Virus record (IMG/VR): IMGVR_UViG_3300033066_002329
Location: 1 to 64,000 of that record
Length of the DNA: 64,000 bases
Direction: 5' to 3' (one strand)
Source of the DNA: a virus
Taxonomy: Duplodnaviria; Caudoviricetes
Shown here: positions 16,989 to 42,945 of the stretch, piece by piece
Layout of the letters: each line of letters begins with the position of its first letter
Numbering within the stretch: the first letter of the stretch is position 1
Made by a program: the position numbers and the translations under genes
The notes under the pieces: generated by a model
Seen by the model: only the letters and a program-made list of their open reading frames with translations
The model's database searches: none
Told to the model about the DNA's origin: nothing

Positions 16989-17076
16989 TGGTAGCGGGAG
17001 TAGGAATCGAACCTACGGTCTCCGTGTCATTTCTGACGGCTTATGAGGCCTGGGGCTTACCAACAAGCTCCCCGCA
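16989..17076 (-). tRNA. atypical initiator-like tRNA-Met(CAT) with extra hairpin after anticodon arm; encoded CCA
   Basis: U1:U72 mismatch, loop CTCATAA, T-arm GTAGG TTCGATT CCTAC, inserted GTCA-GAAA-TGAC. Confidence 0.6.
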
Positions 17077-17081
17077 ATTTG

Positions 17082-17230
17082 TGGCAACGACAGGATTCGA
17101 ACCTGCACCTTACTGGTTATGAACCCAGCCGAACTTAGAGTAGACAGACCTTACAAACTAAAACACCTATCTATAGTTTCAATGTTTCAAAAATACGGTC
17201 TCATATAACTCACCATCGTTCTACGTTGCT
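17082..17230 (-). tRNA. tRNA-Met(CAT)-like with ~75-nt insertion in D-arm and 8-nt anticodon loop
   Basis: AGCAACG/CGTTGCC acceptor; insert 17135..17209 flanked by duplicated GTT. Confidence 0.55.
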
Positions 17231-17239
17231 AAACGTTTG

Positions 17240-17983
17240 TTATTTATTAAATTGTTTTATAAATTTTTCAAATTCTTCTTTTACAAATTTTTTATTTTCT
17301 TTCCCCATATCTTTAATAATATAAGGGGTGTATCCTAATTTTATTATTTCTTTTACTTTAATCTCATCTCTATTTTGAACCTGTTTCACAGAATGTTTAT
17401 TAGTTATTTTTTCATAATGCCATTTACCATTCCATAAGATAGCTATTTTTAAATCTTCAATTATTACATCTGCATCCCACCCATTAAATATACTTTCATT
17501 AAATTTTACTGATTCAAATTTTTCTTTACAAAGTTCTCCAAAATAAATTTCATTTTTACTTCTACGATTTTGAGACTGCACTGATTTTAAACCTCCTGCT
17601 CTTCCGTTATTTTGCGAAGCACAACTTTTACCACAAAAAATTTGTTTATGTCTTTTTTGTAAAACCTCGAACTTACATTTACATCCTGGACACTCTTTCT
17701 GTAAAGTTTCTTTTTTAACTCTATTTTCAAAAACACATTTTTGGCTACAAAACTCTTGTTTTCTTAAAGCCCATTTAACTGTAAATTCTTTTTTACATCC
17801 AGAACATGTTTTAGATACATCTGGATTTCCTCTTCCTTTTAATAATTTAGATACTGTTTTATTTATTTCTTTTCTTTTATTTTTTGTTGAAAACGCTCTT
17901 GCGCATTCTCTACAACAAAATTCACCTGTAGAATATTTACTATATTTTACACCTTCTTTTTTATTACAATTTTTACATTCCAT
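17240..17983 (-). CDS. PD-(D/E)XK homing-type endonuclease between tRNA-Met genes
   Basis: CxxC repeats; RSKNE...WDADVIIEDLKIAILWNGKWH; likely start ATG 17983. Confidence 0.75.
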   Translation of the reverse strand: MECKNCNKKEGVKYSKYSTGEFCCRECARAFSTKNKRKEINKTVSKLLKGRGNPDVSKTCSGCKKEFTVKWALRKQEFCSQKCVFENRVKKETLQKECPGCKCKFEVLQKRHKQIFCGKSCASQNNGRAGGLKSVQSQNRRSKNEIYFGELCKEKFESVKFNESIFNGWDADVIIEDLKIAILWNGKWHYEKITNKHSVKQVQNRDEIKVKEIIKLGYTPYIIKDMGKENKKFVKEEFEKFIKQFNK

Positions 17984-18044
17984 ACTAATAAATAGTATAA
18001 AAAATTCGAACTTATAATTTCTTATAGACTTTCGTCTTTTAAAG

Positions 18045-18119
18045 TAGCACAAGAGGGACTCGAACCCCCGTCTCTGCCTTATGAGAGCAGCGTAAGTAAA
18101 CCAACTCTACCATTGTGCC
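18045..18119 (-). tRNA. tRNA-Met/Ile2 (CAT)
   Basis: Canonical cloverleaf, loop CTCATAA. Confidence 0.85.
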
Positions 18120-18247
18120 ATAAAATAAATGCTATAAGTGATATTGCAAGCCACGCCCTGGAGGGAGTCGAACCACTCCAAGTTGGGGCCTCGAACCCCG
18201 CCTCACACTTACTCCTACTACCGTTCGGAATAACATTTATTATTTTT

Positions 18248-18571
18248 TTATTTACTAGGATATTTAGAATCCATTTCATCAATCACACTGAAAGGAGAAC
18301 CTCCAATGCCTGAATAACGAATATCGTCAAATCCATTTTCTTTAGTAATAAGAGATTCTTTCTCATCAATAGAACCTCTAAATTTATCAAACCCTTTTTT
18401 GTTTTCAATATTACCAGTTGAAGGATTATAACTTCCCCAATCTGCTGGTCTATCTGTACCAATAGGTTCTACAAAATATTTTTTACCTATTCTATAAGAG
18501 TGTACTATAAATCTACCACTCTCGTCTCTATCTGTTAAAAATTTTTGTCTAAATTCAAATGTTGTTTTCAT
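18248..18571 (-). CDS. hypothetical protein
   Basis: ORF within tRNA operon. Confidence 0.65.
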   Translation of the reverse strand: MKTTFEFRQKFLTDRDESGRFIVHSYRIGKKYFVEPIGTDRPADWGSYNPSTGNIENKKGFDKFRGSIDEKESLITKENGFDDIRYSGIGGSPFSVIDEMDSKYPSK

Positions 18572-18585
18572 AAAAGTTTCTTTTT

Positions 18586-18753
18586 TTATAACTTACTTAG
18601 CTCAAGTTTTAAATCTGCAATTTTTCTTACATAATCTGACACACTAATTTCCTTAGTGTCTGATGTCTTTTTTGTTAAAGACAATGTCATTTCATCTTGA
18701 AGATATTTTATTCTCTCTTCTAATTTTGCTCTTTTTTTATCTACTTTAGCCAT
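18586..18753 (-). CDS. 55-aa hypothetical protein (MAKVDKKRAKLEER...)
   Basis: Manual translation; below ORF-track cutoff. Confidence 0.55.
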   Translation of the reverse strand: MAKVDKKRAKLEERIKYLQDEMTLSLTKKTSDTKEISVSDYVRKIADLKLELSKL

Positions 18754-18893
18754 AACAAGTTTATGTTAGTTTTTTGTTTTTTTCCTCTAATACTTTCCAT
18801 ATGCTGAGCATATATTTTCATAAAGGCTTTCATCTTTTGAATCTTTTCTTCTTGGTGTTTACTTAAGGTGTCACCATCACCATCTGAATCCAT
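18741..18893 (-). CDS. 50-aa hypothetical protein (MDSDGDGDTLSKHQ...)
   Basis: Manual translation; below ORF-track cutoff. Confidence 0.45.
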   Translation of the reverse strand: MDSDGDGDTLSKHQEEKIQKMKAFMKIYAQHMESIRGKKQKTNINLLWLK

Positions 18894-18916
18894 TGGTTTT
18901 TTAAGTTAAATTTTTG

Positions 18917-18991
18917 AGCAGATGACGGGTCTCGAACCCGCAAAACCTCCACCTTGGCAAGGTGGCGCTCTACCAATTGAGCTACATCTGC
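18917..18991 (-). tRNA. tRNA-Gly(GCC)
   Basis: Canonical, loop TTGCCAA, U73. Confidence 0.92.
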
Positions 18992-18993
18992 AT

Positions 18994-19127
18994 AAAACAG
19001 GGATAGTTTATTAAGAGTGTATTTGTTTTGTTAAGCAGGAGTTGAACCTGCATCCTTTTTCTTGACATGAAAACACTCATCCATTGAGCTTTTAACCGAA
19101 GTAACTCTTAAATATTGCCACTGTTTT
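18994..19127 (-). ncRNA. Y RNA-like (Yrl) element enclosing a tRNA-like cloverleaf
   Basis: Shared arms GTGGC..AAGAGTTACTTC / TACACTCTT..ACTATCCC around D-, anticodon- (ATGTCAA) and T-arms. Confidence 0.65.
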
Positions 19128-19128
19128 G

Positions 19129-19202
19129 AGAGAACAATCGGGATTGAACCGACTCTATTTCGCCTTGGCAAGACGATGCACCACCACTTATGCGTCATTC
19201 TC
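19129..19202 (-). tRNA. tRNA-Gly(GCC), second copy
   Basis: Cloverleaf, loop TTGCCAA, U73. Confidence 0.85.
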
Positions 19203-19253
19203 TTGGAGAGGGACAGGTTATTTATACCTTTAAGGGACTCCCTCAGACCCTTG

Positions 19254-19326
19254 AGCGAAAGACGGGGCTCGAACCCGCCACCCTCAGATTGGAAATCTGA
19301 TGCTCTACCAAATGAGCTACTTTCGC
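19254..19326 (-). tRNA. tRNA-Gly(TCC)
   Basis: Canonical, loop TTTCCAA. Confidence 0.92.
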
Positions 19327-19360
19327 ATATACAGGATTACAAGGTTCCTGAGGACCTTTG

Positions 19361-19434
19361 AGCAAGTGACGGGAATCGAACCCGCTCTGTTCCAGATTGG
19401 AAGTCTGGCGCACCACCGTTTATGCGTCACTTGC
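19361..19434 (-). tRNA. tRNA-Gly(TCC), second copy
   Basis: Canonical, loop CTTCCAA. Confidence 0.9.
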
Positions 19435-19437
19435 ATG

Positions 19438-19599
19438 TTGTAATAGTAATTAAAATGAGTAAAATAGACCGCTGGGTTTAGCCACTCCCCCATCTCCCCA
19501 TTTATAATATTTGTGGGGAGAGTACGATTCGAACATACGTAGAGCATAGCTCGGCGGTTTTAACCAATTTTGAAGTAACTCGCATTGTAGCCATTACAA
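19438..19599 (-). ncRNA. YrlA-like RNA with circularly permuted class-II tRNA module
   Basis: Order: conserved arm, variable arm, T-arm, acceptor TCTCCCC closed by loop to GGGGAGA, D-arm, conserved arm. Confidence 0.7.
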
Positions 19600-19605
19600 T
19601 TTTTT

Positions 19606-19720
19606 TATAGGGATAGTTAAGAAGAGTATGATGCTAACCACTTAGCGTCATCCCCATTATTTAATTTGAGGGGATGACAGGAATCGAACCTGCGAAGTAA
19701 CTCTTACTTTTGCCACTATA
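19606..19720 (-). ncRNA. YrlA-like RNA (permuted T-arm / loop-closed acceptor / D-arm)
   Basis: GCAGG TTCGATT CCTGT, CATCCCC..GGGGATG, GCT AAGTGGTT AGC inside the shared bulged stem. Confidence 0.75.
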
Positions 19721-19746
19721 ATATTTTAAATTCAAAGAACTTTCTG

Positions 19747-19823
19747 TGGAGCGTGTCGTATTCGAAACGACCTGATATTCCTCTTTGCAAAAGAGGTGGC
19801 CAGCCCTAGCAGCCCCATGCCCC
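19747..19823 (-). tRNA. tRNA-Ala(TGC)
   Basis: Loop TTTGCAA, G3:U70. Confidence 0.85.
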
Positions 19824-19882
19824 AGTTACCAATTTTTCTTTTATTTTCAGTGTGCGGTTATTGGTTAACCTATCTGCTACTC

Positions 19883-20533
19883 TTAAAATTTTCTTCCTTT
19901 AGTCCAACCTTGTTTCAAATATGAATCTAATTCTTCTTTTTTTATTTTTTTATTTATACTATCTTTTGTTATCCAACATGTTCCAAATTGTGAATTTTTA
20001 TTTCCAATGCCTTGTTTAGATTTAGTTTCACTCATTTTATTTTTAGTTTTTTCATCATGTTGTTTACCATTCCAATCAAAAAAATATTTTCTTTCTCTTA
20101 CTCCTTCTTCATAAGATTTTATTTGACTTTTTATTTTTTTGTTTATCCAATTTTTTTTGAAAATAGTGTCGTTTTTTAATTTTTCATTAAAAGCTTTTTT
20201 ACCAGCCTTAGAACATTTAATCATATGTTCTTTGTTTGAAAAACCTCCTGAACCACCTTCTTTTAAGTTCATACACAAACTATCTAAAAGTAATTCTTTA
20301 TTTATAATTTCAGACTCTCTATTAATCAACAATTCTCTATTTGGTAAAAATTCAAGTATCTCTTTAACGTGATTTTCAATTCCATATTTTCTAATTGAAT
20401 ATCTTAATTTTGTACCTGAACCCATATATCCATCATCTAACTTTGCTGTTGAATGCATGCCTATATACCATTTTTTAGTTACATTACATGTTGTTTTATA
20501 AATGTAATGTATATTCGCTTTTTTTCTTGCCAC
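19883..20533 (-). CDS. GIY-YIG homing endonuclease between two tRNA-Ala genes; paralog of 21394..22059
   Basis: HYIYKTTC...WYIGMHST...YMGSG. Confidence 0.85.
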   Translation of the reverse strand: MARKKANIHYIYKTTCNVTKKWYIGMHSTAKLDDGYMGSGTKLRYSIRKYGIENHVKEILEFLPNRELLINRESEIINKELLLDSLCMNLKEGGSGGFSNKEHMIKCSKAGKKAFNEKLKNDTIFKKNWINKKIKSQIKSYEEGVRERKYFFDWNGKQHDEKTKNKMSETKSKQGIGNKNSQFGTCWITKDSINKKIKKEELDSYLKQGWTKGRKF

Positions 20534-20591
20534 TTTAAATCATTTCTAAATAAATATTTAGAAATTTTAAAAAGTACAAAAAAGTTTAAGG

Positions 20592-20665
20592 TGGAGATGA
20601 CGGGATTCGAACCCGCATACCTTCTGCTTGCAAAGCAGCTGCTCCGCCAGTTGAGCTACATCCCC
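20592..20665 (-). tRNA. tRNA-Ala(TGC)
   Basis: Canonical, G3:U70. Confidence 0.93.
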
Positions 20666-20669
20666 ATGG

Positions 20670-20749
20670 TCGGAAGTTCACAGAAACTAATCCCCTGCCA
20701 GGCAGGAAACATTTCAAAGGAATGACCTAAATCATTTCTGCTCTCCCGA
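20670..20749 (-). ncRNA. small structured RNA candidate
   Basis: TCGGGAG/CTTCCGA and GCAGAAA/TTTCTGT stems enclosing hairpins. Confidence 0.35.
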
Positions 20750-20758
20750 TATTTTTTT

Positions 20759-21175
20759 CTACTTCCACATTCCACCTTGTCCAAGCCATTCAGAATATTT
20801 TTGATTTCTCTTATCTTTTTTTCTTTCTAGGAAATCATCAAATTCTTTAATTAAAGGCTCAGGAATTTTTATATTTTTATCAATGAAAATTTGCATTATC
20901 TCATCTCTCGTAAAGGTCCAATCTACAATTCCGTCTGTCCATTGGTCTCTCCAAAGCCCCCAACCACTCTTACCTGTAAGTACATGCTTTAAAATATTTG
21001 GATGTCTGGTTTTTATTATTTCACCTTTTTGATATTGTCCATTTTCAAGTTTTCTAAAACAAAATTTTGCTTCATCTCCATTTGGGTCAAACATTATTTT
21101 ATTTTTACTCTCAATATCTGAACCACAAAAAGTTGTAATATTTTGTTTTGAGATTTGAAAGAAAAAGTTAAACAT
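20759..21175 (-). CDS. hypothetical protein
   Basis: ORF within tRNA operon. Confidence 0.6.
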   Translation of the reverse strand: MFNFFFQISKQNITTFCGSDIESKNKIMFDPNGDEAKFCFRKLENGQYQKGEIIKTRHPNILKHVLTGKSGWGLWRDQWTDGIVDWTFTRDEIMQIFIDKNIKIPEPLIKEFDDFLERKKDKRNQKYSEWLGQGGMWK

Positions 21176-21332
21176 TGTATTAAAATTATCAGAATACTTT
21201 TGAAGTTTCCGATTGTGTTTTGTTCCAATTACTTTTTTTCTTTCTTCGATTCTTTGTTGCCTTTCTTGGCCTAAATGGCGTCCAAGCTGTGACCTCCTTG
21301 ATTTTTCATTTTTTTAGTTTTTAAATTGTTTG

Positions 21333-21408
21333 TCAGAGTGGCAGGATTTGAACCTGCGAACTCTCGGCTCCTGACCGAGCGCACTAGACCTGGCTATGCG
21401 ACACTCTG
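21333..21408 (-). tRNA. atypical tRNA-Pro(AGG), loop TCAGGAG
   Basis: C1:G72 acceptor CAGAGTG/CACTCTG, intact T-arm, C33 instead of U33. Confidence 0.65.
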
Positions 21409-22059
21409 TTGTTTTCGTCCTTTGAACCACCCTTTTTTAAGGTGCGAATTAAGTTCTTCTTTTTTTATTTTTTTAGCAATACCTTCTTTAACTATCCAAC
21501 AAGTTCCATATTGAGAATTTTTATTTCCAATACGTTGCTTAGCCTTTTCACTCATTAATTCTTTAGTTTTATCAGATAATTTTTTATTAGTATTTGATTT
21601 GTTACCAAAATTCTTTTTTCTAACACCTGATTCAAAACTTATTTTCCAAGCTTCTGATAATGTTTTAGAATATTGTTTAGACCATTCTTCATTTTTAAAT
21701 AACTCTTTCTTTTTTTCATTAGCAGCTTTACTTATTTTTTTTCTTAATTTTATTGATAAACCAATAAGCCCTCCATCTCCTCCTACTTTTAAATTCATAC
21801 ATTCTTCTTTTGCAATTTCATTGAGATTTACAATCTCTCTTTCTCTTGCAGCCAACTGCTGTCTATCTTCAAAGAACTCTAATATTTCTCTTTTATGGTT
21901 TGCTACACCATATTTGTTAACAGAATATCTCAACCTCTTTCCTGAACCCATATAACCATCATCCAAGTCATTGGTTGAGTGCATTCCAATATAATACTTA
22001 CCACTAAGTAAGTTTGTCGTTTTGTATATGAAGTGATACTTCTTTTCTTTTCTTGCCAT
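21394..22059 (-). CDS. GIY-YIG homing endonuclease
   Basis: HFIYKTTN...YYIGMHST...YMGSG. Confidence 0.85.
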   Translation of the reverse strand: MARKEKKYHFIYKTTNLLSGKYYIGMHSTNDLDDGYMGSGKRLRYSVNKYGVANHKREILEFFEDRQQLAAREREIVNLNEIAKEECMNLKVGGDGGLIGLSIKLRKKISKAANEKKKELFKNEEWSKQYSKTLSEAWKISFESGVRKKNFGNKSNTNKKLSDKTKELMSEKAKQRIGNKNSQYGTCWIVKEGIAKKIKKEELNSHLKKGWFKGRKQQSVA

Positions 22060-22106
22060 AATATCCTTTTAAGATAAATAGAAAGAAAAAGTACAAAAAC
22101 GACCAA

Positions 22107-22195
22107 TGGTAGGTGTAGAGGAATTCGAATCCCCTGTGTATCTTACGTTCTTGTTTTACAGACAAGAGTCACTCCACCGCCGTGACCGTACACCC
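22107..22195 (-). tRNA. tRNA-Tyr(GTA) with encoded CCA
   Basis: Loop CTGTAAA, long variable arm. Confidence 0.88.
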
Positions 22196-22206
22196 ATGTT
22201 TTTTTG

Positions 22207-22288
22207 TGGGAGTGGTCAGATTCGAACTGACTCAGCAAAAGCACTTGTTTTACAGACAAGCCCAACTCTCCAACGTTGGCGCACTCCC
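22207..22288 (-). tRNA. tRNA-Tyr(GTA), second copy
   Basis: Loop CTGTAAA. Confidence 0.88.
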
Positions 22289-22392
22289 ATTAAATGACCC
22301 TTTTCAAAGCCATTTTTCACACTGAACAAACAATGTGGTTAGCCATAACTACTTGAAACTATAGACGTCCGTCTCAAGCAATCTTAGGTTAG

Positions 22393-22466
22393 CGGTCCTG
22401 ACGGGACTCGAACCCGCAACCTTCCCGCAGACAACGGGTTATCCTACCAAATTGGACGACAAGACC
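22393..22466 (-). tRNA. tRNA-Asp(GTC), atypical loop TTGTCTG
   Basis: Cloverleaf, G73, pyrimidine at position 37. Confidence 0.8.
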
Positions 22467-22494
22467 ATTTGAGTTTTAAGTTCTCCAACTTTTG

Positions 22495-22568
22495 CGGTCT
22501 GGACGGAATTCGAATCCGCAATCTTTCCCGTGACAGGGGAACGCCATACACCCATATGCTGCCAAACC
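22495..22568 (-). tRNA. tRNA-Asp(GTC)
   Basis: Loop CTGTCAC, G73. Confidence 0.88.
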
Positions 22569-22596
22569 AAATTAAGTTTTAAGTTCTTCAACTATG

Positions 22597-22685
22597 TCGG
22601 GGTAACAGGACTCGAACCTGCATAAGACTTAAACGTCCATTCTTGTTTCCAAAACAAGTCGTCTTCCAATTGACTACATACCCCG
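22597..22685 (-). tRNA. tRNA-Pro(TGG) with unusually long variable region
   Basis: Loop TTTGGAA; ~20-nt variable segment with GAC/GTC hairpin. Confidence 0.8.
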
Positions 22686-22690
22686 TTATG

Positions 22691-22765
22691 TCGGAAAGAC
22701 GGGGCTCGAACCCGCATAATCTCCTCATCCCAAATGAGGCGAGGTCCCAATTCCTCCACTTTCCG
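22691..22765 (-). tRNA. tRNA-Pro(TGG)
   Basis: Loop TTTGGGA, C1:G72. Confidence 0.9.
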
Positions 22766-22826
22766 AATCTGAGAATGATTCACATCATTCTCATAAACTT
22801 TTATTACCAATATGTCAAATAACGCT

Positions 22827-22864
22827 AAAAAAAAACACCCAACTCTTTTGGAATTGGGTGTTTT
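22827..22864 (-). terminator. attenuator terminator of tRNA operon 1
   Basis: AACACCCAATT-CCAAAAG-AGTTGGGTGTT + T run, between leader and first tRNA. Confidence 0.85.
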
Positions 22865-22891
22865 AAGTTTCTTTTATATTTTAAATCAACA

Positions 22892-23011
22892 TCATGACTC
22901 AATATTAAATAACACACCCTCATCCAAGCTATAATCCGCTGGAGCATAACCCGCCCCGCCGTTCATCGGCATTGCAGCTGGCATGTTTGAATATGTATTT
23001 AAAGTTTTCAC
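22892..23011 (-). CDS. 39-aa leader peptide MKTLNTYSNMPAAMPMNGGAGYAPADYSLDEGVLFNIES (attenuator 1)
   Basis: GTG start, TGA stop; 18 of codons 10-30 are Met/Pro/Ala/Gly/Tyr/Asp, the downstream tRNA set. Confidence 0.8.
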   Translation of the reverse strand: MKTLNTYSNMPAAMPMNGGAGYAPADYSLDEGVLFNIES

Positions 23012-23065
23012 CTGTTGTTTTATTTTAAATAGTTAATATTTTTTGTTTTTCAATAATTTCTACGA

Positions 23066-23098
23066 CAAAGATATAAAAAAGTTTCACCTAAATGCAAA
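23066..23098 (-). promoter_or_regulatory. Bacteroidota primary-sigma promoter TTTG-N21-TATCTTTG for leader/tRNA operon 1
   Basis: Consensus match. Confidence 0.75.
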
Positions 23099-23149
23099 TG
23101 TTTTTTTAAAAAAAATTATAAGTATCTGATTTTCAAACTAATAAATTTA

Positions 23150-23872
23150 TTATTCTCTTATAATTTTTTTCTTCATTTTTTCAAAAGAATATTCTTCATC
23201 TGGTTCTGAATCTCCATATAATGATGGCTGAGAATATATAACTTTATCCTCTAAAACTCTTAACTGTGGCTGCATTCCATCAACAGCAGGTACATATAGA
23301 GACCAAAATTCGTCAGAATTTTTAGCTGACCTTGCATAGTGACTAGTCCAAAGGTCACTTTCTTTTTCTTGTTTTTCTAAGAAATCAATAAAATCTTTTC
23401 TTGTAACTATTTCTTTTTTTTCAATCAATAATACATTTACAATACCATTAAACCCTAATTCTTTCGCCATCGGATATTCTTTCAAATCCTTATTTTCAGG
23501 ATTTGGGTCATATACAATATTAAATTTTTTATCAATTAATACTGCATGAGTTATTGGATTAGAATCATTTTTATCAAAGAATTTTGGAGAGTAAACAGAT
23601 GCGTAAAAATATCCATCTACACCATTATATTTATTTAGAGTACTTATAAAAGTTGGAAAATATAAAACTTTTTTATTTAAAGGATTATGAAGAACTCCTT
23701 CATATTGATAATCTGTAGTTTTTAAAAATTCAAGCAAAGGCTCATAATATCCATTCTTATTTTCAATAAAATTTGGAACATCTTCATATTCTTTTTCAAA
23801 CAAAGAAGCGATTGCAGCTCTCATGCAATCGCCCTTATCTTTATCTATCTCTTTCTGATAAACTTCTTTCAT
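23150..23872 (-). CDS. hypothetical protein, possible papain-like peptidase fold
   Basis: GDCMRAAIASL...THAVL. Confidence 0.45.
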   Translation of the reverse strand: MKEVYQKEIDKDKGDCMRAAIASLFEKEYEDVPNFIENKNGYYEPLLEFLKTTDYQYEGVLHNPLNKKVLYFPTFISTLNKYNGVDGYFYASVYSPKFFDKNDSNPITHAVLIDKKFNIVYDPNPENKDLKEYPMAKELGFNGIVNVLLIEKKEIVTRKDFIDFLEKQEKESDLWTSHYARSAKNSDEFWSLYVPAVDGMQPQLRVLEDKVIYSQPSLYGDSEPDEEYSFEKMKKKIIRE

Positions 23873-24447: not shown

Positions 24448-24491
24448 TCAAATATAATAAAAAAGCCTGGCACTGCCAAGCTTTTAATATT

Positions 24492-24683: not shown

Positions 24684-24688
24684 ATTAT

Positions 24689-26061: not shown

Positions 26062-26062
26062 T

Positions 26063-34828: not shown

Positions 34829-34891
34829 AGTTATTTTATTAAATTCGTTTTTTATACGAATAGAAATAAAATAAGTTTCAATAAAAATAAA

Positions 34892-35215: not shown

Positions 35216-35360
35216 AATAACTAAGTTTTTTAGTTTAATAAAGAACGATTTTATTGTCTTTTATAAATATGTAAAACTTATTTTTATTATAAAAAAGTTA
35301 ATAAAAAAAGGCTCAAAATTGAGCCTTTAATTTATTGATTTTCAATATTTTATATATTTT

Positions 35361-36419
35361 TTAACTTCCACATCCACCTCCACAGCCTCCTCCTCCACAG
35401 CCGCTACTACAACCGCTTGAACCACAGCCGCTTGAGCCTCCACTATCACTTCCGCAACCGTGCCCTCCTCCACTGTCTCCTCCATGACCACTATCTCCTC
35501 CGTGACCACCACCATGATTAGAGTCCGCTCCACAGCCTAAAAAAGAACCAGCTATTGTACAGCCTGTACCTCCTGAATCGCTTGAACTACTGTTACTTTC
35601 TTTTTTTGAACTTTCGGAATTTGTTTTTTTAGAAGACGAACTCTTACTCGAATAACTTGAATTAGTTGTTTTTTTAATATTATCTTTGTTACTTGCATAA
35701 TATCCTATGTCATTTTTAACATAATTACTATAACTACTGCTACGTTTTTCTTTCGTAAAGTATCTATATATACCATGCACAACAAAAAATGTAACAAGAC
35801 CAGCTAAAAAAAATAAAATTAAATCTGAATTATCTGAATTATCTGAATTTGATGCAGACATTAAAGTCACACAAGTAAAAAACCCAATTAAAGCTATTGA
35901 ATATACAATTAAATGTTTTTTAATTTTTGCCTTATTAAGGACAATATTATCATTCATATTTACTCTTTTAAAGTTTATATCTTCAAAGCGTTTTTTTGTG
36001 TTAGGCCATATGTCTGACGGAGCTTTTTCTCCAAATTCTGACTCATAAAAGTCAAGAGTGAATTGATATTGGTCTTTATATTTAACTGTTTCCTGATTTC
36101 CTCCTTTAGTAGGGCCATGATGTAATGATACACCTAAAGTTTCTTTACACAAATCAGTCCAATAAGAGTGAGTATAAATCATATGAAGATGCCATGCTTG
36201 GTCTACTTCTTCCGAAGGAGTTAAAGACTTACCAGAAATTACTGAAAGATATAAGAATTTCTTATATTCATTAATTACTCTTTTGGAATATTCACGACTC
36301 CAACCATTTTCTTTTGATAATCTACTTGAAAAAGGGAAAGATGATGTGGGGCTATCAAGATTAAAATCTGATATTTTTTTCCACAATTCTATTTGTTTAT
36401 TTTTATCTTGTATTCTCAT
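35361..36419 (-). CDS. glycine-rich-domain (TIGR04222-like) membrane protein
   Basis: EYKKFLYL...PSEEVDQAWHLH; G/C/S-rich tail. Confidence 0.7.
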   Translation of the reverse strand: MRIQDKNKQIELWKKISDFNLDSPTSSFPFSSRLSKENGWSREYSKRVINEYKKFLYLSVISGKSLTPSEEVDQAWHLHMIYTHSYWTDLCKETLGVSLHHGPTKGGNQETVKYKDQYQFTLDFYESEFGEKAPSDIWPNTKKRFEDINFKRVNMNDNIVLNKAKIKKHLIVYSIALIGFFTCVTLMSASNSDNSDNSDLILFFLAGLVTFFVVHGIYRYFTKEKRSSSYSNYVKNDIGYYASNKDNIKKTTNSSYSSKSSSSKKTNSESSKKESNSSSSDSGGTGCTIAGSFLGCGADSNHGGGHGGDSGHGGDSGGGHGCGSDSGGSSGCGSSGCSSGCGGGGCGGGCGS

Positions 36420-36465
36420 ATTATTAATTTATACGAAATTACAAAAAAAAAGTTACAGACAAAAT

Positions 36466-37059
36466 TTATTTTTTAAGATTACCGAACTCATCAAAGTCTT
36501 CAACTTCTGGAAATTGTGAAGGAATACCAGGATATGCTCGTACAGAACCAGTAGATGAAATATTCATTCCATCTCTCTCTTCTATTTTCTTATCATTTTT
36601 TAAGACTTTATTACCTATGCCTATTTCTCTTATTATACCACTTAATTTTAACTTTTGAATAGGTGTCCAATTAAGTATTTTTTTACTATCTGCAGCAGCA
36701 GCTCCAGTAGCTTTATTAAATGCAATGGTAATATGTGGTATATCATTTTTTGAATAATATCCAGATACTCCAAAGGCTATAGCATTTTCTGAAATTCCAA
36801 TCATATCAACAGTGAGTTCAACATCCTTATTTAAATCGCCTCTTAATCTTAATGTTTCTGGCAATCCACCATGAGCAATTGTCATATGATAATGAGCTGG
36901 TTCGCTCCAACCATCAGGAATATAATTTTTAGAAAATTCTTGTATCTTCTGTATTTCTGATGGTTCTTCAATTACAACTGCAGAGTATAAAACATCACGA
37001 TTTAAATATACTTCACTTAATGTTTTTCTAATTATATTACGAAGTTTATTCAGCATCAA
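36466..37059 (-). CDS. 2H phosphoesterase; N-terminal LRNIIRK motif
   Basis: Two HxT motifs (YHMTI, PHITI). Confidence 0.75.
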   Translation of the reverse strand: MMLNKLRNIIRKTLSEVYLNRDVLYSAVVIEEPSEIQKIQEFSKNYIPDGWSEPAHYHMTIAHGGLPETLRLRGDLNKDVELTVDMIGISENAIAFGVSGYYSKNDIPHITIAFNKATGAAAADSKKILNWTPIQKLKLSGIIREIGIGNKVLKNDKKIEERDGMNISSTGSVRAYPGIPSQFPEVEDFDEFGNLKK

Positions 37060-38116
37060 AACTTTTCATTAAATTGTAAATCATCTGTCTATACTCATCT
37101 GTTTGAGTCATATCTATTCTCTTAAGATTTTGAATATTACCATTTCTCAAAATTTGTTTATTTTCTAAGAAGACTTTTAATAAACCTTTCGAATCTGTAA
37201 ATTGATGTTCTATTTCAAAATTTGTACCAAATGATTCATTAAATTCTTTAATTTTTTCTTCAAACATTTTTAATTCTTTAAGATGTTTATTACTCATCAA
37301 ATCAAGTCCAGATATTTTTGATTCATTTATTTTAGCATCAATTGAAAACATTACATATTTGTGATTAATTGATTTATTAGAAAACCTCTCATCTAGTATT
37401 TCAGATTTTGTAATATTTACAATTTCACTACCTTCAATAAAATACATAAGCCATTCAAACATAAAATCAGGTAATTTAACATTCCCTCCTCTATCTAAAA
37501 CTCCATTTTTACAGTCAATACCTCTTTCTATGCCAACTTGTAAATCATCCTTTAACCTTTTATTGTACATCATCTCACCTGGAGTAACTCCCCTAAATTC
37601 AGGTTCATTATTCATTGGGTAAAATCTTCCATTTTTATCTTTAGGCAAATCTCTTACATCTGTAAATTGCTTATTAACATCATATAACATTCCTCCAACA
37701 ACATCCTCATATTTTGCTCTTAAATCGTTCTCAGAAGGTTGTATTTTTTTTGTTTCTCCAAGAGTATTTCTAATTGATTTAATGCTTTCTATTGGTATAC
37801 CAGTCCTATTTGAAGCATATTTATAATCAGCTTCTCTTAAATTTTTTTCTGATATAGAAATAAAATCATCTAAAAATTGTTTTTGAAAATCATCCAAAGG
37901 CCATTTAAGATGATTGAATTTTTTTGTTATAGGTTTACCTGCATATCTACCATCGCTCTCATTTAAAGAAATAGCCGAATCCATAAAAGAGATAGAACCC
38001 ATAGGTCTTTTTAAAACTGGAATAGAAACTTTTGAATTCTTTTTTTTCTTTTTAATTCTTTTAGTTTCTTCAGTTATTAATTTTAAAATAATATCTAAAG
38101 TACTTTTTGTATTCAT
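37046..38116 (-). CDS. hypothetical protein
   Basis: Long ORF with LNE linker. Confidence 0.65.
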   Translation of the reverse strand: MNTKSTLDIILKLITEETKRIKKKKKNSKVSIPVLKRPMGSISFMDSAISLNESDGRYAGKPITKKFNHLKWPLDDFQKQFLDDFISISEKNLREADYKYASNRTGIPIESIKSIRNTLGETKKIQPSENDLRAKYEDVVGGMLYDVNKQFTDVRDLPKDKNGRFYPMNNEPEFRGVTPGEMMYNKRLKDDLQVGIERGIDCKNGVLDRGGNVKLPDFMFEWLMYFIEGSEIVNITKSEILDERFSNKSINHKYVMFSIDAKINESKISGLDLMSNKHLKELKMFEEKIKEFNESFGTNFEIEHQFTDSKGLLKVFLENKQILRNGNIQNLKRIDMTQTDEYRQMIYNLMKSFDAE

Positions 38117-38118
38117 AA

Positions 38119-38538
38119 TTAGTCACCTTCTGTTCCAAAACTTTTCAATGCATTAGTTTGCATTTTTTCCATTGCTTTATATGGCTCATTTAAAATTTGA
38201 ATAGACCCATCTAAATTAACTGCAAATAATGGTTCTTCTCCATATTTTTCTTTAAAATCGTTAATATATCCATTCATCTTAAATATTTTATTTGATGTTG
38301 GATGAGTCCAAGCCTCAGAACCTAATATATCATCCTTAGATAAAATATGAGTTTTTCCTATCCCTTCAATTGAAGGCAAATAAGCATTACCTCTATTTTT
38401 AAAATCTACCTCTTTTCTAGTTTGTGGCAATTCATTAAATGGTCTAACCTGAAGAATATCAACCCCTTTAATAATAGGAGTTTTTTCTTGTTCAAATAAT
38501 CTTTCAAGAGCTTCTCTGATATATTGTCTAAGTTTCAT
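38119..38538 (-). CDS. hypothetical protein with LRQYIREALE motif
   Basis: ORF; TATTTAT upstream. Confidence 0.6.
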   Translation of the reverse strand: MKLRQYIREALERLFEQEKTPIIKGVDILQVRPFNELPQTRKEVDFKNRGNAYLPSIEGIGKTHILSKDDILGSEAWTHPTSNKIFKMNGYINDFKEKYGEEPLFAVNLDGSIQILNEPYKAMEKMQTNALKSFGTEGD

Positions 38539-38570
38539 AACCTTTTTGTAATAAATAGCCTAAAAAAGCA

Positions 38571-38596
38571 AAAAAGCCTGGCATATACCAGGCTTT
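38571..38596 (-). terminator. terminator ending tRNA operon 2
   Basis: AAAGCCTGG-TATATG-CCAGGCTTTTT. Confidence 0.65.
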
Positions 38597-38599
38597 CTA

Positions 38600-39304
38600 C
38601 TACCAATAATCCCATCTTGCAGAATTTCTGTGGTGATATCTGTATTCGTATTTATCGAATTCATCACCTCCGAACATCATATTCTTATAGACAGTTTGTT
38701 TAGAATTTCTTCTATCTGAACGATGGTATGGTTTTATGAAATCTTTTGGAGGATTTGCATCTCCCCATATTTGGACATCATAGAATTTTTTGCTAGATAA
38801 TTCATCATGCTTTTCATTGATTTGGCTTTCTATTACAGAATCAAACTCTTTATAATGAGTCACCCAACGAGCTTTAATTTTTATAACGAAGAAGTATGTT
38901 TGAACCACACATCTGTAACGTGGCCAAAAACTATTGTAGTCTTTATCTCCATAAGTTATTTTACAGAAGTATTTTTTAACTTCTGGCTCTAAGCCCTCAT
39001 AGACTCTTTCTGAAATATAACCGAATCCAGGACTTACATATTCGTATTTCCCTTTTCTGATTTTTTTCTTGAAAGATTTGTCTCTATTCCAGACTCTTTC
39101 TCCTACAAGTTGGATACATTTATAGAATACCCAAGCATCATCACGATTCTTGATGTCATCTCTTAAGTCCCATACTTTGTAGTAGCCATCTTTATATGGC
39201 TTTTCTAATTCTATCCAGTTTTGATTATCCTGGATTTTTTCAAGCTCCCATTTGTCTCTTTGGACTTTGAGCTTCTCTTTGTAAAGAGGATGTTTTGTGT
39301 TCAT
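38600..39304 (-). CDS. basic, Trp/Arg-rich hypothetical protein
   Basis: ORF. Confidence 0.65.
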   Translation of the reverse strand: MNTKHPLYKEKLKVQRDKWELEKIQDNQNWIELEKPYKDGYYKVWDLRDDIKNRDDAWVFYKCIQLVGERVWNRDKSFKKKIRKGKYEYVSPGFGYISERVYEGLEPEVKKYFCKITYGDKDYNSFWPRYRCVVQTYFFVIKIKARWVTHYKEFDSVIESQINEKHDELSSKKFYDVQIWGDANPPKDFIKPYHRSDRRNSKQTVYKNMMFGGDEFDKYEYRYHHRNSARWDYW

Positions 39305-39319
39305 ACGATTTTAGTTTAC

Positions 39320-39370
39320 TTACCAAAATCGCCAAACTCCTCCTGCAGTGCTTTTTAAGTTATTTTTCAT
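39320..39370 (-). CDS. 16-aa peptide MKNNLKSTAGGVWRFW
   Basis: Manual translation, ATG..TAA, A-rich upstream context. Confidence 0.35.
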   Translation of the reverse strand: MKNNLKSTAGGVWRFW

Positions 39371-39394
39371 TTTTTTATTTTTGTTTTTTATCCG

Positions 39395-39466
39395 TAGCCT
39401 CGGCAGGAATCGAACCTGCATCTGAAGTTTAGGAAACTTTTATTCTATCCATTGAACTACGAAGCC
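39395..39466 (-). tRNA. tRNA-Arg(CCT)
   Basis: Canonical, loop TTCCTAA. Confidence 0.88.
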
Positions 39467-39732
39467 AAATCATCTTGAATATCATTCCAGATTTGCTTAT
39501 TAATTTTAAACTTTGGAGTACGTTCATATTTTTCATATGTACACATCCAACAATTACATGGCCTTGCTGTCGTTCTTAAAAAAGTGCAAGACTCCCCTTT
39601 TTCTATCTCCTTAATCCACTCTTCTCTTTTTTGTGGATGATAGCTATAAGTTCCTTGAGTCCAAACTTTAATTCTTTTCTTAAACTTTACTTTTTTTTTG
39701 TAACGTCTTAGGGCTCTTTTATAATTTTTCAT
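39457..39732 (-). CDS. basic hypothetical protein with CxCxxC
   Basis: ORF; PCNCWMC. Confidence 0.6.
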   Translation of the reverse strand: MKNYKRALRRYKKKVKFKKRIKVWTQGTYSYHPQKREEWIKEIEKGESCTFLRTTARPCNCWMCTYEKYERTPKFKINKQIWNDIQDDLAS

Positions 39733-39733
39733 A

Positions 39734-39805
39734 TACTTCAGGTGTTATCCTCACCAGAATGCGTCGAAGTATTTCGATTTAGCATCTGGCTTAGCGCCTG
39801 CAGTA
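39734..39805 (-). other. long imperfect hairpin abutting start codon
   Basis: TACT.CAGG/CCTG.AGTA, CCAGA/TCTGG, TCGAA-ATAC-TTCGA. Confidence 0.4.
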
Positions 39806-39855
39806 TCTGAGTTTAATATTAAACATAGTTTTATTTTTTATAAATATACGAATTT

Positions 39856-40584
39856 TTAAGAGAACTTCTCAATCATTTTACGAGAAATCTCCTCCTTAAG
39901 TTGCAAATTTGTTTCATATTTATCAATTTCTACACCTAAATGCCTGGCAATCAAATGAATATTTTTTGTTCCATCCTCATTCATATTTGCCTTTCTAATC
40001 TTTTTATCATAATCTTCATCAAATAGATAAAGTACATGCTTTTCTCCTGCGGACTTAGACATTTTCTTTGTTGGGTCTATAAGTGACATAACCTTGTCTG
40101 CATCTCCAAATTCATATTTATAATATTTTCCATCAACTCTTTTAGATATGTCATTACAAAGGTCTATATGAGCAACTTGGTCTTTACCAACAATAATTAC
40201 ATCTGGGTCATTCATCATAATATCTGCAGCCATAAGTACAGGATATAACAATAGGCCCATATCAAATTTAACATCATCTTTTTTATCCTTGTATTGAGGC
40301 ATCTTAACAAGAGTAGGTAAACTAAGTTTGCAACATAATTTAAAAAAAAGTTCAGTATATTCTGGAGTTTGTCTTTTAATGTTTTTACAGCCAAGTCTAA
40401 TTAATTCTTGCTCTGTTACATCTGAATAATTATCAGTTGTTAGAGCATGATAATTTGCTATAAGAAATGTTACATCGTGACCCTGCGCTTGAAGCTCAAG
40501 TCCTCTCTTAATGCATCCCAAATAGTTTCCGATATGAAGTCGTCCTGTAGGTTGAATCCCAATAAGATATTTTTTTGTTTCCAT
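39856..40584 (-). CDS. trpS: tryptophanyl-tRNA synthetase (short, 242 aa)
   Basis: GIQPTGRLHIGNYLG; YPVLMAADI; VGKDQ; KMSKS. Confidence 0.88.
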   Translation of the reverse strand: METKKYLIGIQPTGRLHIGNYLGCIKRGLELQAQGHDVTFLIANYHALTTDNYSDVTEQELIRLGCKNIKRQTPEYTELFFKLCCKLSLPTLVKMPQYKDKKDDVKFDMGLLLYPVLMAADIMMNDPDVIIVGKDQVAHIDLCNDISKRVDGKYYKYEFGDADKVMSLIDPTKKMSKSAGEKHVLYLFDEDYDKKIRKANMNEDGTKNIHLIARHLGVEIDKYETNLQLKEEISRKMIEKFS

Positions 40585-41027
40585 GATAATGTTTTTAATT
40601 TTGTTTCATTTAAATTTTCTTCACAAAAACCGATAAGTGGTTTTGTTTTAATCCAAGAGTCTTTATCAGAAAGACCTTCAAGAGAAGAATCATCATCAAT
40701 TAAAATAAAATTATCAAAATTATTTTCAGCAATAAATTTTTCAAATTCTTCTTTTCTACTTATATAACCATAAATAGGAACGATACCGTCAATTTGTTTT
40801 TTGATATTTCTATTTTTAAATATTTGATTTAACTCTTCATTTTTTTTTGTTCTTCTCCTATCAGAGATAAGCCATAATTCAAAATTTAAATCATCTGTAA
40901 GCTCATTAAAATTATCTACAGCTATAGAGTTGAATTTTGAATAACCATCGCTTTCTAATTCATCTCTACGCCAAGAAGGAGTTGTAATAAGAACTCCATC
41001 CAAGTCTAATATAATTACATTTTTCAT
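40470..41027 (-). CDS. HAD phosphatase, Swiss-Army-knife RNA-repair type
   Basis: IILDLDGVL...ILIDDD; likely start ATG 41027. Confidence 0.7.
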   Translation of the reverse strand: MKNVIILDLDGVLITTPSWRRDELESDGYSKFNSIAVDNFNELTDDLNFELWLISDRRRTKKNEELNQIFKNRNIKKQIDGIVPIYGYISRKEEFEKFIAENNFDNFILIDDDSSLEGLSDKDSWIKTKPLIGFCEENLNETKLKTLSWKQKNILLGFNLQDDFISETIWDALREDLSFKRRVTM

Positions 41028-41030
41028 TTG

Positions 41031-41104
41031 CACTAGCGGCAGGAATCGAACCTGCCCACGGAGATTTGGAGTTTCCATCGCCTACCCTTGGGACATTCGC
41101 TAGT
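41031..41104 (-). tRNA. tRNA-Trp(CCA), atypical D and anticodon stems
   Basis: Loop CTCCAAA, G73, A30:C40 mismatch. Confidence 0.8.
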
Positions 41105-41198
41105 ATGTGATGATTCTCATTACTATTGAATCATCATTGAATTGCATCCTTCCTTTCGTAAGTGAGTAAGAGATTTAAAAATCTCAGCAATTCTATTG

Positions 41199-41269
41199 CA
41201 CGCCTGGACAGATTCGAACTGCCATCAAAAGTTTTGGAGACTTCTATTCTACCATTGAACTACAGACGT
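41199..41269 (-). tRNA. tRNA-Trp(CCA)
   Basis: Canonical, loop CTCCAAA, G73. Confidence 0.9.
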
Positions 41270-41278
41270 ATATTTTTG

Positions 41279-41355
41279 CAGCCACCACGGGAGTCGAACC
41301 CGTATGTATCCAGTTACTCTTTCAACTGTTTAGAAGACAGAGGAGTTATGCAGCC
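41279..41355 (-). ncRNA. rearranged tRNA-Arg(TCT)-like RNA (anticodon arm inside D-stem)
   Basis: ACTC [CTGT CTTCTAA ACAG] GAGT, then AACTGGATA, then T-arm ACGGG TTCGACT CCCGT. Confidence 0.65.
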
Positions 41356-41453
41356 ATAATAAAAAATAATTATGAATAACTGGAATTGCGATATTCCATT
41401 ACGTTATTAGCGTTGTCGCAGTCTCACTACTATACAGCCATAATTATTTTTTG

Positions 41454-41526
41454 TGACCCTAGAGGAATTCGAATCCCCATTAAAAGCTTAGAAGGCTCTT
41501 GTCCTATCCAGTTGAACGATAAGGCC
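41454..41526 (-). tRNA. tRNA-Arg(TCT)
   Basis: Canonical, loop CTTCTAA. Confidence 0.9.
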
Positions 41527-41607
41527 ATTTATAGTTAGTCTAAGTAGTTTTATGATGCCAACTATTAAATGCATCCTCATAACGGATTACTACAATCCTT
41601 GAATTTG

Positions 41608-41688
41608 TGCTAAGTAGTGGAGTCGAACCACCAGATAATCAGTACGTACATAACTATCTTTCCAAATGCATGCTTATTTGACCTCAAC
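41608..41688 (-). ncRNA. tRNA-like RNA without a recognisable anticodon loop
   Basis: T-arm GGTGG TTCGACT CCACT; stems CAAAT/ATTTG and AGATAGT/ATTATCT. Confidence 0.4.
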
Positions 41689-41692
41689 ATTG

Positions 41693-41780
41693 CGGAAGCA
41701 GTCGTATTCGAAACGAGCCCAACTAAATGGGTTCTTGTTTTCCAAACAAGCAAGAGCCACCTGCCCTATCTTCAACTTCC
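41693..41780 (-). tRNA. tRNA-Ser(GGA)
   Basis: Loop TTGGAAA, long variable arm, G73. Confidence 0.85.
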
Positions 41781-41781
41781 A

Positions 41782-41870
41782 TGGCGGAAAACGGAGCAAT
41801 CGAAGCCCAGTCAAATTAATGACCCTCTCGCTTAGCAGGCGGAGATAGAACCCTGTCTATTTCGTTTTCC
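41782..41870 (-). tRNA. tRNA-Ser(GCT) with encoded CCA
   Basis: Loop CTGCTAA, long variable arm. Confidence 0.88.
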
Positions 41871-41939
41871 ATTTTTTATGCGGAACTAAAAAGATTCAAA
41901 AATCAATTTTTACCACATATTTATTATAAAACTTAATTT

Positions 41940-42605
41940 ATGAAACCATTATATACTCAGCAACAATTTGACAGTGCTAAATCAAGAGATAAACTTCCTT
42001 GTGAATGTTATATTTGTAAAAATACTTTTTATAAAATAAAGTATGATATACAAAAACATTTAAACTCTAATAATATGCACAAAATAAAATACTGCTCTTC
42101 TAAATGCACTATTACTAAACAAACAGTTAACTGTATTCAATGTAATAAATCATTTTCTAAAGTTTTAAATCAAATCAAAAAAACAAAGAATAATTTTTGT
42201 TCAAAATCTTGTGCTGCAACTTACAACAATGCTCATAAGACCATTGGCACAAGACGTTCAAAACTTGAAATTTATCTTGAACAACAACTTACAACCTTAT
42301 ATCCAAATCTTCATGTTGACTTCAACAAAAAAGAAGCGATTAATTCTGAACTTGACATCTACATTCCATCTTTAAAACTTGCATTTGAGCTTAATGGCAT
42401 CTATCATTATGAGCCAATTCATGGTCAAAATAAATTAAGTCAAACACAAAATAACGACCAACGTAAATTCCAGGCTTGTATTGAACAAGGTATATCACTA
42501 TGTATAATTGATGTCTCTAAACAAAAATACTTTAAAGAAAGTACAAGTCAAGAGTTCTTAAGTATTATAACTGATATCATAAACAATATGTCAAAGAACA
42601 TTTAA
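41940..42605 (+). CDS. PD-(D/E)XK homing-type endonuclease antisense to tRNA-Ser genes
   Basis: C-terminal half nearly identical to 9248..9928. Confidence 0.8.
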   Translation: MKPLYTQQQFDSAKSRDKLPCECYICKNTFYKIKYDIQKHLNSNNMHKIKYCSSKCTITKQTVNCIQCNKSFSKVLNQIKKTKNNFCSKSCAATYNNAHKTIGTRRSKLEIYLEQQLTTLYPNLHVDFNKKEAINSELDIYIPSLKLAFELNGIYHYEPIHGQNKLSQTQNNDQRKFQACIEQGISLCIIDVSKQKYFKESTSQEFLSIITDIINNMSKNI

Positions 42606-42609
42606 TCAG

Positions 42610-42696
42610 AGGAGAGTGGAGGAACCGACCCCCTATCAGCTCATCACCGAAACCATAGTTTTCAAGACTATTTGCGCTCCATGCACGGCACTCTCC
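42610..42696 (-). tRNA. tRNA-Ser(TGA), degenerate T-loop, U73
   Basis: Loop CTTGAAA; acceptor GGAGAGT/ACTCTCC; T-loop TCGGTT. Confidence 0.65.
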
Positions 42697-42706
42697 ATTT
42701 TTATTC

Positions 42707-42740
42707 AAAAAAAAATCCTGATTCTTTTGGAACCAGGATT
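42707..42740 (-). terminator. attenuator terminator of tRNA operon 2
   Basis: AATCCTGGTTC-CAAAA-GAATCAGGATT + T run. Confidence 0.85.
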
Positions 42741-42781
42741 CAATATTGTAATTTAATTTATCTCTTATAACGTAAAAAAAA

Positions 42782-42868
42782 TTATGACAATATATGGCCT
42801 GGTTCGGAGTTTCTTGAACTCGAACTTGAACTTCTCCAAGACCATCTATATGTTGTTAATACTTTCAT
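42782..42868 (-). CDS. 28-aa leader peptide MKVLTTYRWSWRSSSSSSRNSEPGHILS (attenuator 2)
   Basis: ATG..TAA; 13 of codons 8-21 are Arg/Trp/Ser, the downstream tRNA set. Confidence 0.85.
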   Translation of the reverse strand: MKVLTTYRWSWRSSSSSSRNSEPGHILS

Positions 42869-42913
42869 TACTTTTAAATAGTGTAAAATTTTATTTTTTA
42901 TATTTTCTACGCA

Positions 42914-42945
42914 CAAATATATAAAAGGTTTCAATTAAATGCAAA
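42914..42945 (-). promoter_or_regulatory. Bacteroidota primary-sigma promoter TTTG-N20-TATATTTG for leader/tRNA operon 2
   Basis: Consensus match. Confidence 0.75.

Follow-up and report, generated by a model that had tools for sequence, protein, structure and literature searches.

Two tRNA arrays and the units ahead of them

The window analysed here, 64,000 nucleotides (nt) at positions 1 to 64,000 of the virus record IMGVR_UViG_3300033066_002329 (Duplodnaviria; Caudoviricetes), carries two arrays of transfer RNA (tRNA) genes, each preceded by a short unit of promoter, small open reading frame (ORF) and intrinsic terminator that is the subject of this study. The source is an 88.9-kb IMG/VR record with ~30% G+C, estimated to be 29% complete. 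Both units and both arrays lie on the minus strand.

tRNA genes were called with ARAGORN, also at a lowered threshold, and with Rfam. Array 1 (16989–22765, −; ARAGORN and Rfam) has its first tRNA at 22765 and runs in the order Pro(TGG) ×2, Asp ×2, Tyr ×2, Pro(AGG), Ala ×2 and then the Gly genes, Gly(TCC) ×2 and Gly(GCC) ×2, with a further Asp-like gene and Met ×2 making up the rest of the ARAGORN calls. Array 2 (39394–42696, −; ARAGORN at the lowered threshold) opens with Ser(TGA) at 42696–42609, followed by Ser(GGA), Arg(TCT) ×2, Trp ×2 and Arg(CCT). It also holds two ORFs without assigned function and a Ser(GCT)-like gene at ~41870–41782, which was placed by eye only and has an imperfect anticodon stem.

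Upstream of these genes lie two paralogous units, unit 1 at 23098–22827 (−) and unit 2 at 42945–42707 (−), each with the same order of elements: a Bacteroidota-type promoter, a short ORF with an antiterminator segment in its 3′ part, a strong intrinsic terminator and then the tRNAs. A preliminary description of this DNA had claimed one upstream layout common to both tRNA operons, and all of the elements that it named were found, on the minus strand; the word that it had reported in both terminators, TTCCAAAAGA, proved to be the loop of each. The promoter of unit 1 occupies 23066–23098 (−), with a −33 TTTG at 23098–23095 and a −7 box of the TAnnTTTG type at 23073–23066, and alignment identified the promoter of unit 2 (42914–42945, −) as its paralogue. 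Both promoters sit within a common 18-nt word that is present in 3 copies in the window against 0.41 expected, and the two units align across the promoter and transcription-start region and then again at the terminator loop.

In both units, a short ORF with a start and a stop codon, here called the leader, lies between the promoter and the tRNAs. Leader 1 has 39 codons (22892–23011, −; GTG start at 23011, TGA stop), with an alternative in-frame ATG start at 22984, and leader 2 has 28 codons (42782–42868, −; ATG start at 42868, TAA stop). The terminator of unit 1 (22827–22864, −) comprises a 14-pair stem (22864–22832), the loop CCAAAAG and a T tract; that of unit 2 (42707–42741, −) comprises a 12-pair stem (42741–42713), the loop of unit 1 and a T tract. 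Each is the sole such site in its region, against 0.1 expected. The loop is common to the two units, and the stems differ by mutually compensating changes and are complementary within each unit. tRNA-Ser(TGA) begins ~10 nt past the T tract of unit 2 and is therefore transcribable only by read-through. No sigma-70-like site was found in the 60-nt gap between terminator and tRNA in unit 1, where Bacteroidota-type promoters were checked by eye only. A terminator without an intervening promoter thus stands between leader and tRNAs in both units.

The third copy of the promoter word (8880–8863) was considered as the head of a further attenuator and rejected, as neither a leader ORF nor such a terminator was found there. 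Downstream of this copy (8863–8880, −) lies a GOLLD RNA (Rfam RF02032, 156 bits; 7937–8372, −), and the two are separated by ~450 nt of G+C-richer, apparently structured non-coding sequence.

Leader codons and the tRNAs that follow them

Each leader contains a block of codons, its roster core, that corresponds to the tRNA genes of its own operon. The core of leader 1, delimited with a codon table and a window test, spans 18 codons (22931–22984, −), in which 17 of the 18 residues are Met, Pro, Ala, Gly, Tyr or Asp, with several synonymous codons per amino acid. The core of leader 2 consists of 12 consecutive Arg, Trp and Ser codons (42812–42847, −), made up of AGA, which matches Arg(TCT), TGG, and codons of both Ser boxes, TCN and AGY. 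Among all 801 small ORFs of 20–60 amino acids (aa) in the 88.9-kb record, leader 1 was the best match to the amino acids of its own operon (17/18, runner-up 10), as was leader 2 to those of its operon (12/12, runner-up 8), which bears out the earlier claim that each sensing core fits the operon behind it. Leader composition correlated with the leader's own tRNA set (r 0.62 for unit 1 and 0.72 for unit 2) but not with the set of the other unit (−0.25 and −0.29 after swapping).

We looked for the same layout in other phages using a detector that required a small ORF ending ≤110 nt before a hairpin and T tract, itself ≤160 nt before a tRNA on the same strand. Co-variation of leader codons with tRNA content in related phages, which the preliminary description had put forward as a check, was clearly positive: leaders mirroring their own downstream tRNAs were found in at least 19 non-redundant units spanning several phage lineages. 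In the IMG/VR loci L076 and L029, a leader with 19 kinds of amino acid stands ahead of at least 20 tRNAs, and L014 has two units, one with a Phe/Asp/Ala/Glu/Ser leader and one with a Thr/Tyr/Lys/Gln/Pro/Gly leader, each before exactly those tRNAs. Among named phages, Maribacter phage Panino has two units, and in one of them an unbroken run of ten codons matches the seven downstream tRNAs, which are for Gln, Arg, Leu, His, Glu and Pro; two units apiece were found in the Cellulophaga phages phi38:1 and Calle_1; and Tenacibaculum phage Gundel_1 also carries the layout. In phi38:1 (locus L128), the two terminators lie at ~5009–5032 and ~6504–6533. A 642-kb huge phage (LR756502.1) has five units. 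In Vibrio phage D69, the leader holds all eleven amino acids of its twelve downstream tRNAs, and the device is therefore not confined to phages of Bacteroidota. The first tRNA begins 7–11 nt past the terminator in Panino and phi38:1; because the terminator often abuts the first tRNA in this way, the tRNAs would be made only by read-through. A scan with the promoter word added two relatives in which a leader with an uninterrupted run of 6 or 7 Gln codons precedes 4–5 tRNA-Gln genes, and one with an Asn/Thr/His/Lys/Ile leader before Asn ×3, His, Thr ×3, Lys ×4 and Ile ×2.

Among 118 viral contigs that carry tandem tRNAs and were sampled without bias, 70 arrays had the 5′ end in view, and these gave 11 candidate units; very clear units in this sample include L142, L173 (three units), L182, L219 and L230. 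No convincing unit was found among cellular tRNA arrays (120 bacterial and archaeal loci, 55 arrays with the 5′ end in view). The cellular arrays sampled do show terminators and small ORFs, without a roster match, and yielded one borderline candidate, a 12-codon ORF set against a 13-amino-acid set. No unit was found under the detector criteria in Aeromonas phage 4_4572, which has 18 tRNAs, and the 50–100 kb region of crAss001 has no tRNAs, so it was uninformative.

Searches by similarity recovered little. With blastn, neither the two leader regions of the window nor the L076 leader matched any of 50,697 phage records, and a search for loci related by the protein encoded just upstream of unit 1 returned no relatives; the attenuator elements diverge too fast for DNA similarity searches. 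The terminator word TTCCAAAAGA alone is not diagnostic, with 7 copies in the record, and most of its IMG/VR matches are due to chance. Used together with a T tract as a search key, it likewise gave mostly chance matches, the only true units recovered being those of L029 and L076. The match in L014 was also a chance one, as the two units of that locus lie elsewhere in it.

The correspondence between leaders and arrays was assessed by permutation. When the leaders of 10 units, with ORFs taken without optimisation, were re-paired with tRNA sets, the observed match was never reached in 200,000 permutations (p<5e-6), and the result held both at the amino-acid level and at the codon level with wobble rules. 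Across the 19 non-redundant units, mean r was 0.56 for a leader's own tRNA set against 0.01 for other sets (z 8.9, p≤3e-6, permutation). The own set ranked first in 11 of the 19 and among the top two in 16, with a slight bias towards the hypothesis in that the ORF of 4 of the 19 units had been chosen as the best-matching candidate. At finer resolution, 34 of 42 Leu, Arg and Ser leader codons had a downstream anticodon that serves their codon box. Codons cognate to the putatively controlled product are thus enriched in the leaders, by ORF ranking and by permutation alike.

Several of the leaders have been recorded as genes. Leader ORFs make up all or part of GenBank coding sequences (CDS) listed as hypothetical proteins in Panino (CDS0063; L127 4367–4462), phi38:1 (gp066; L128 4874–4981) and Vibrio phage D69 (VPHD69_0165; L134 6792–6935). 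In the Panino unit P1 and in Gundel_1, only 4 nt separate the end of the −7 box from the ATG, and these may be near-leaderless messenger RNAs. Some units have an ORF of 70–86 aa between the leader-terminator and the first tRNA (L132 ~46159–46560; L278 409–1040, − orientation), and in these the predicted attenuator would gate a protein gene plus tRNAs. The second attenuated tRNA block of Panino contains a permuted transfer-messenger RNA (Rfam RF04321; L127 6651–6859).

RNA pairing and a proposed attenuation switch

In both units of the window, the 3′ part of the leader is complementary to the terminator. The antiterminator strand, region 2, lies at 22913–22928 (−) in unit 1, where it is complementary to the terminator 5′ arm (region 3) and loop, and at 42797–42806 (−) in unit 2, where it is complementary to the 5′ arm. 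The 2:3 duplex of unit 1 (−15.8 kcal/mol) beat all 300 shuffles and that of unit 2 (−13.8 kcal/mol) beat 96% of shuffles. Among 11 units from different phages, the duplex beat at least 96% of shuffles in 10, and region 2 always lay 0–25 nt before the stop codon. Between the paralogous units 1 and 2, region 2 changes along with the terminator stem. Full-length folds of both units gave a 1:2 helix plus the terminator (z-scores −3 to −4); in unit 2, region 1 lies inside the roster codons (42836–42845, −) and pairs with region 2 in the untranslated fold (RNAfold). With the terminator 3′ arm omitted, RNAfold paired the 3′ leader segment of unit 1 with the 5′ arm.

Switching was simulated by masking a 30-nt ribosome footprint under two regimes, (a) equilibrium folding and (b) folding of a transcript ending before region 4, the terminator 3′ arm. 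At equilibrium, four units flipped (L076, Panino P1 and P2, and phi38:1 unit a): a stall on roster codons abolished the terminator, which was restored with the ribosome on the last codons or without a ribosome. The units of the window did not flip at equilibrium, and the truncated-transcript approximation, a kinetic one, was therefore used. Under it, the terminator 5′ arm was sequestered with the ribosomal A site on roster codons in 10/10 units and was freed in 10/10 once the ribosome stood at the non-roster 3′ codons, so that the roster edge coincided with the edge of the antiterminator-permissive zone. Duplex energies, folds and footprint simulations agree in placing the antiterminator pairing where a terminating ribosome would mask it.

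We consider it likely that each of the two units is a ribosome-mediated (leader-peptide) transcription attenuator in control of the phage tRNA operon behind it, and from the sequence evidence a tRNA set is probably produced only while its matching codons are decoded slowly. What is observed is the anatomy, the match between codons and tRNAs, the complementarity of the segments and the way in which these co-vary across many phages; from them we infer that the leaders are translated, that stalling sets read-through and that some biological trigger brings about the shortage. Ribosome-stalling attenuation of the tRNA operons had been the reading offered in the preliminary description, and it gained support from the co-variation survey and from the complementarity of leader and terminator arm in 10 of 11 units.

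On this model, transcription would start at the Bacteroidota-type promoter and a ribosome would follow RNA polymerase closely, translating the leader. Were the roster codons read fast, the ribosome would reach the last 8–14 codons and cover region 2, upon which the terminator hairpin would form and transcription would stop before the first tRNA. If charged tRNA were scarce for any roster codon, the ribosome would stall upstream of region 2, which could then pair with the terminator 5′ arm, and read-through would yield the whole tRNA block. Accumulating phage tRNAs would in turn let the leader be read fast again and shut the operon, giving negative feedback. Because the roster names the amino acids that the block serves, and for the most part also the codons, each unit would act as an OR gate over its tRNAs; because the product is the molecule sensed, it would work as a supply-and-demand homeostat. 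The trigger could be codon-usage mismatch, host tRNA decay in infection or a tRNA-targeting defence.

Several observations weigh against tRNA-sensing attenuation. The rosters are not exclusive: leader 1 has three Asn codons and its array is without tRNA-Asn, while leader 2 is without AGG, the codon of tRNA-Arg(CCT), and the Ser(GCT) gene is a by-eye call. Each roster codon is present just 1–5 times, which bears on sensitivity to a single tRNA. At equilibrium, units 1 and 2 keep the terminator at every ribosome position, with a partial effect only in unit 2; since the terminator wins at equilibrium in these units, their switch would have to be kinetic, as in trp. The footprint effect is itself modest in both of these units, where region 3 drops from a pairing probability of ~0.6–0.7 to 0.1–0.4, and the no-ribosome state is ambiguous, with region 3 46–71% paired in the truncated transcript. 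Homing-endonuclease genes, one of them on the opposite strand, interrupt both arrays, and the 3′ extent of each transcription unit is one that we infer.

Three other explanations fit the co-variation data less well. The same attenuator hardware might report amino-acid starvation, with uncharged tRNA as the signal, and so tie tRNA synthesis to host nutrition. A stalled ribosome cannot distinguish a missing tRNA from an uncharged one, the classical leader-peptide attenuators all report charging, and the permutation, duplex, correlation and footprint results do not separate the two signals. Extra tRNA, however, gives no relief from amino-acid starvation, so the output would mismatch the signal, and the rosters are partitioned exactly like the tRNA blocks and follow anticodon-level codon boxes, a better fit to tRNA-supply logic; we regard starvation as an unlikely signal. 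Nor do the data sit well with small ORFs that are independent micro-protein genes, or are untranslated, beside hairpins that act as leaky terminators or insulators and set a fixed low tRNA level. The peptides are conserved only at a short Met-Lys-Thr-like N-terminal start and their composition tracks the tRNA set (z ~9); region 2 co-varies with the terminator arm; the roster-codon edge is also the edge of the antiterminator-permissive zone; and the sampled cellular arrays have terminators and small ORFs but no roster match. We therefore judge this explanation very unlikely, even though several such ORFs are annotated as hypothetical proteins in GenBank and the terminator persists when units 1 and 2 are folded at equilibrium.

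The recurrence of the N-terminal start (Met-Lys-Thr/Val and similar) across many units could point instead to regulated stalling of the kind found in the tnaC and erm leaders, with a small molecule or the nascent peptide in control rather than tRNA supply. The cores, however, show no sequence relationship to one another and vary along with the tRNA sets, and no arrest motif is common to the units. Efficient initiation is a simpler explanation for the A-rich start where hosts do not use Shine-Dalgarno sequences, as is established for Bacteroidota. Regulated peptide arrest is, in our estimation, extremely improbable.

If the units are attenuators that sense tRNA supply, they might serve, tentatively, as a counter-defence and take-over sensor. 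By translating a small sample of the very codons that its own tRNAs read, the phage would gauge, one block at a time, how well the infected cell can decode. Replacement tRNAs would then come on only when specific host tRNAs were lost to cleavage or depletion. Anticodon nucleases, other defences that target tRNA or host tRNA decay induced by the phage could each be the cause, and separately gated blocks would give each kind of shortage its own response. That the purpose is to answer anticodon nucleases is speculation, and a supply-and-demand homeostat fits the data equally well.

Known attenuators, wider meaning and other features of the window

The phage units resemble the multivalent attenuators of enterobacteria. 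The ilvGMEDA (Ile/Leu/Val) and thr (Thr/Ile) operons likewise have a promoter and a short translated leader with mixed regulatory codons, and mutually exclusive antiterminator and terminator hairpins, with the terminator directly before the controlled genes. The phage units differ in that they would control tRNAs rather than enzymes, with rosters of 3 to ~19 amino acids that equal the tRNA content of the block; in that the product, tRNA, would be the molecule sensed, a direct feedback; and in that they are phage-borne and so far absent from the sampled cellular tRNA arrays. Beside the single-amino-acid leaders hisL (7 His codons), trpL and pheL, the relatives with 6–7 consecutive Gln codons have a hisL-like look, although their target is tRNA-Gln genes, whereas the window's own two units are multivalent. 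In pheM, the leader of pheST in Escherichia coli, leader-peptide attenuation acts, as proposed here, on a component of the translation apparatus and not on biosynthesis; there, however, the target is a cellular synthetase for one amino acid, with no tRNA genes.

T-box riboswitches also sense the state of a specific tRNA and choose between an antiterminator and a terminator, but they need no ribosome, since the tRNA itself binds to their specifier codon and T-box motif, and the genes under their control are those for synthetases, transport or biosynthesis. T-box identity was rejected for the window's units: an Rfam 15 scan of the whole window gave only tRNA and GOLLD matches, with no T-box or other Rfam family at either leader.

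Like the phage units, known tRNA operons yield a polycistronic tRNA precursor. Their control is by growth-rate and stringent regulation at promoters, and the tRNA cluster of phage T4 is transcribed from upstream promoters and then processed. We know of no translated leader or attenuator described for known tRNA operons. A full-text literature search turned up no account of tRNA genes, phage or cellular, under leader-peptide or ribosome-mediated attenuation, in agreement with the earlier statement that none had been described for phage tRNA arrays, and the transcriptome paper on phi38:1 does not discuss such attenuation (PMC5335546). On the reading proposed here, a known mechanism would act on a new class of target, in a virus and with a sensing logic that is also new.

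The purpose of tRNA genes in phages, and the use that phages make of them, is a long-standing question; among the answers proposed are compensation for codon usage, survival when host tRNAs decay and evasion of anticodon nucleases. If the sensor reads the codons that the phage tRNAs serve, tRNA supply would be demand-driven, and the role of phage tRNAs becomes a testable question because the roster states which shortages the phage expects. Leader-peptide attenuation, known for amino-acid and synthetase genes, would extend to non-coding RNA genes and to viruses. The layout would also provide an annotation rule for dozens of 'hypothetical proteins' before phage tRNA arrays and would offer compact, programmable switches that sense codons or tRNAs. 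Cultured carriers make experiments feasible: phi38:1 and Calle_1 (Cellulophaga), Gundel_1 (Tenacibaculum), Panino (Maribacter) and D69 (Vibrio).

Homing-endonuclease ORFs identified by PHROG matches are interleaved in array 1 at 21394–22059, 19883–20533 and 17240–18052, and array 2 contains one at 41940–42605 on the opposite (+) strand, also assigned by PHROG, which splits the array directly after its first tRNA. This last gene and one at 9194–9928 (+) are paralogous homing-endonuclease-like genes, 69% identical and with PHROG matches to HNH and homing endonucleases, and both adjoin tRNA genes of the opposite strand. Outside both attenuated arrays, ARAGORN called a tRNA-like gene with a two-base anticodon at 9929–10003 (−), and a second tRNA-like sequence lies just upstream of it at ~10010–10085 (−).

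Elsewhere in the window, a gene at 51787–53238 (−) encodes a phage Ro60/TROVE protein with a vWA domain (Pfam); a TROVE-domain protein is also annotated in Bacteroides phage crAss001 (gp96). A 1009-aa protein encoded at 1869–4898 (−) has an ART-PolyVal ADP-ribosyltransferase domain at its N-terminus.

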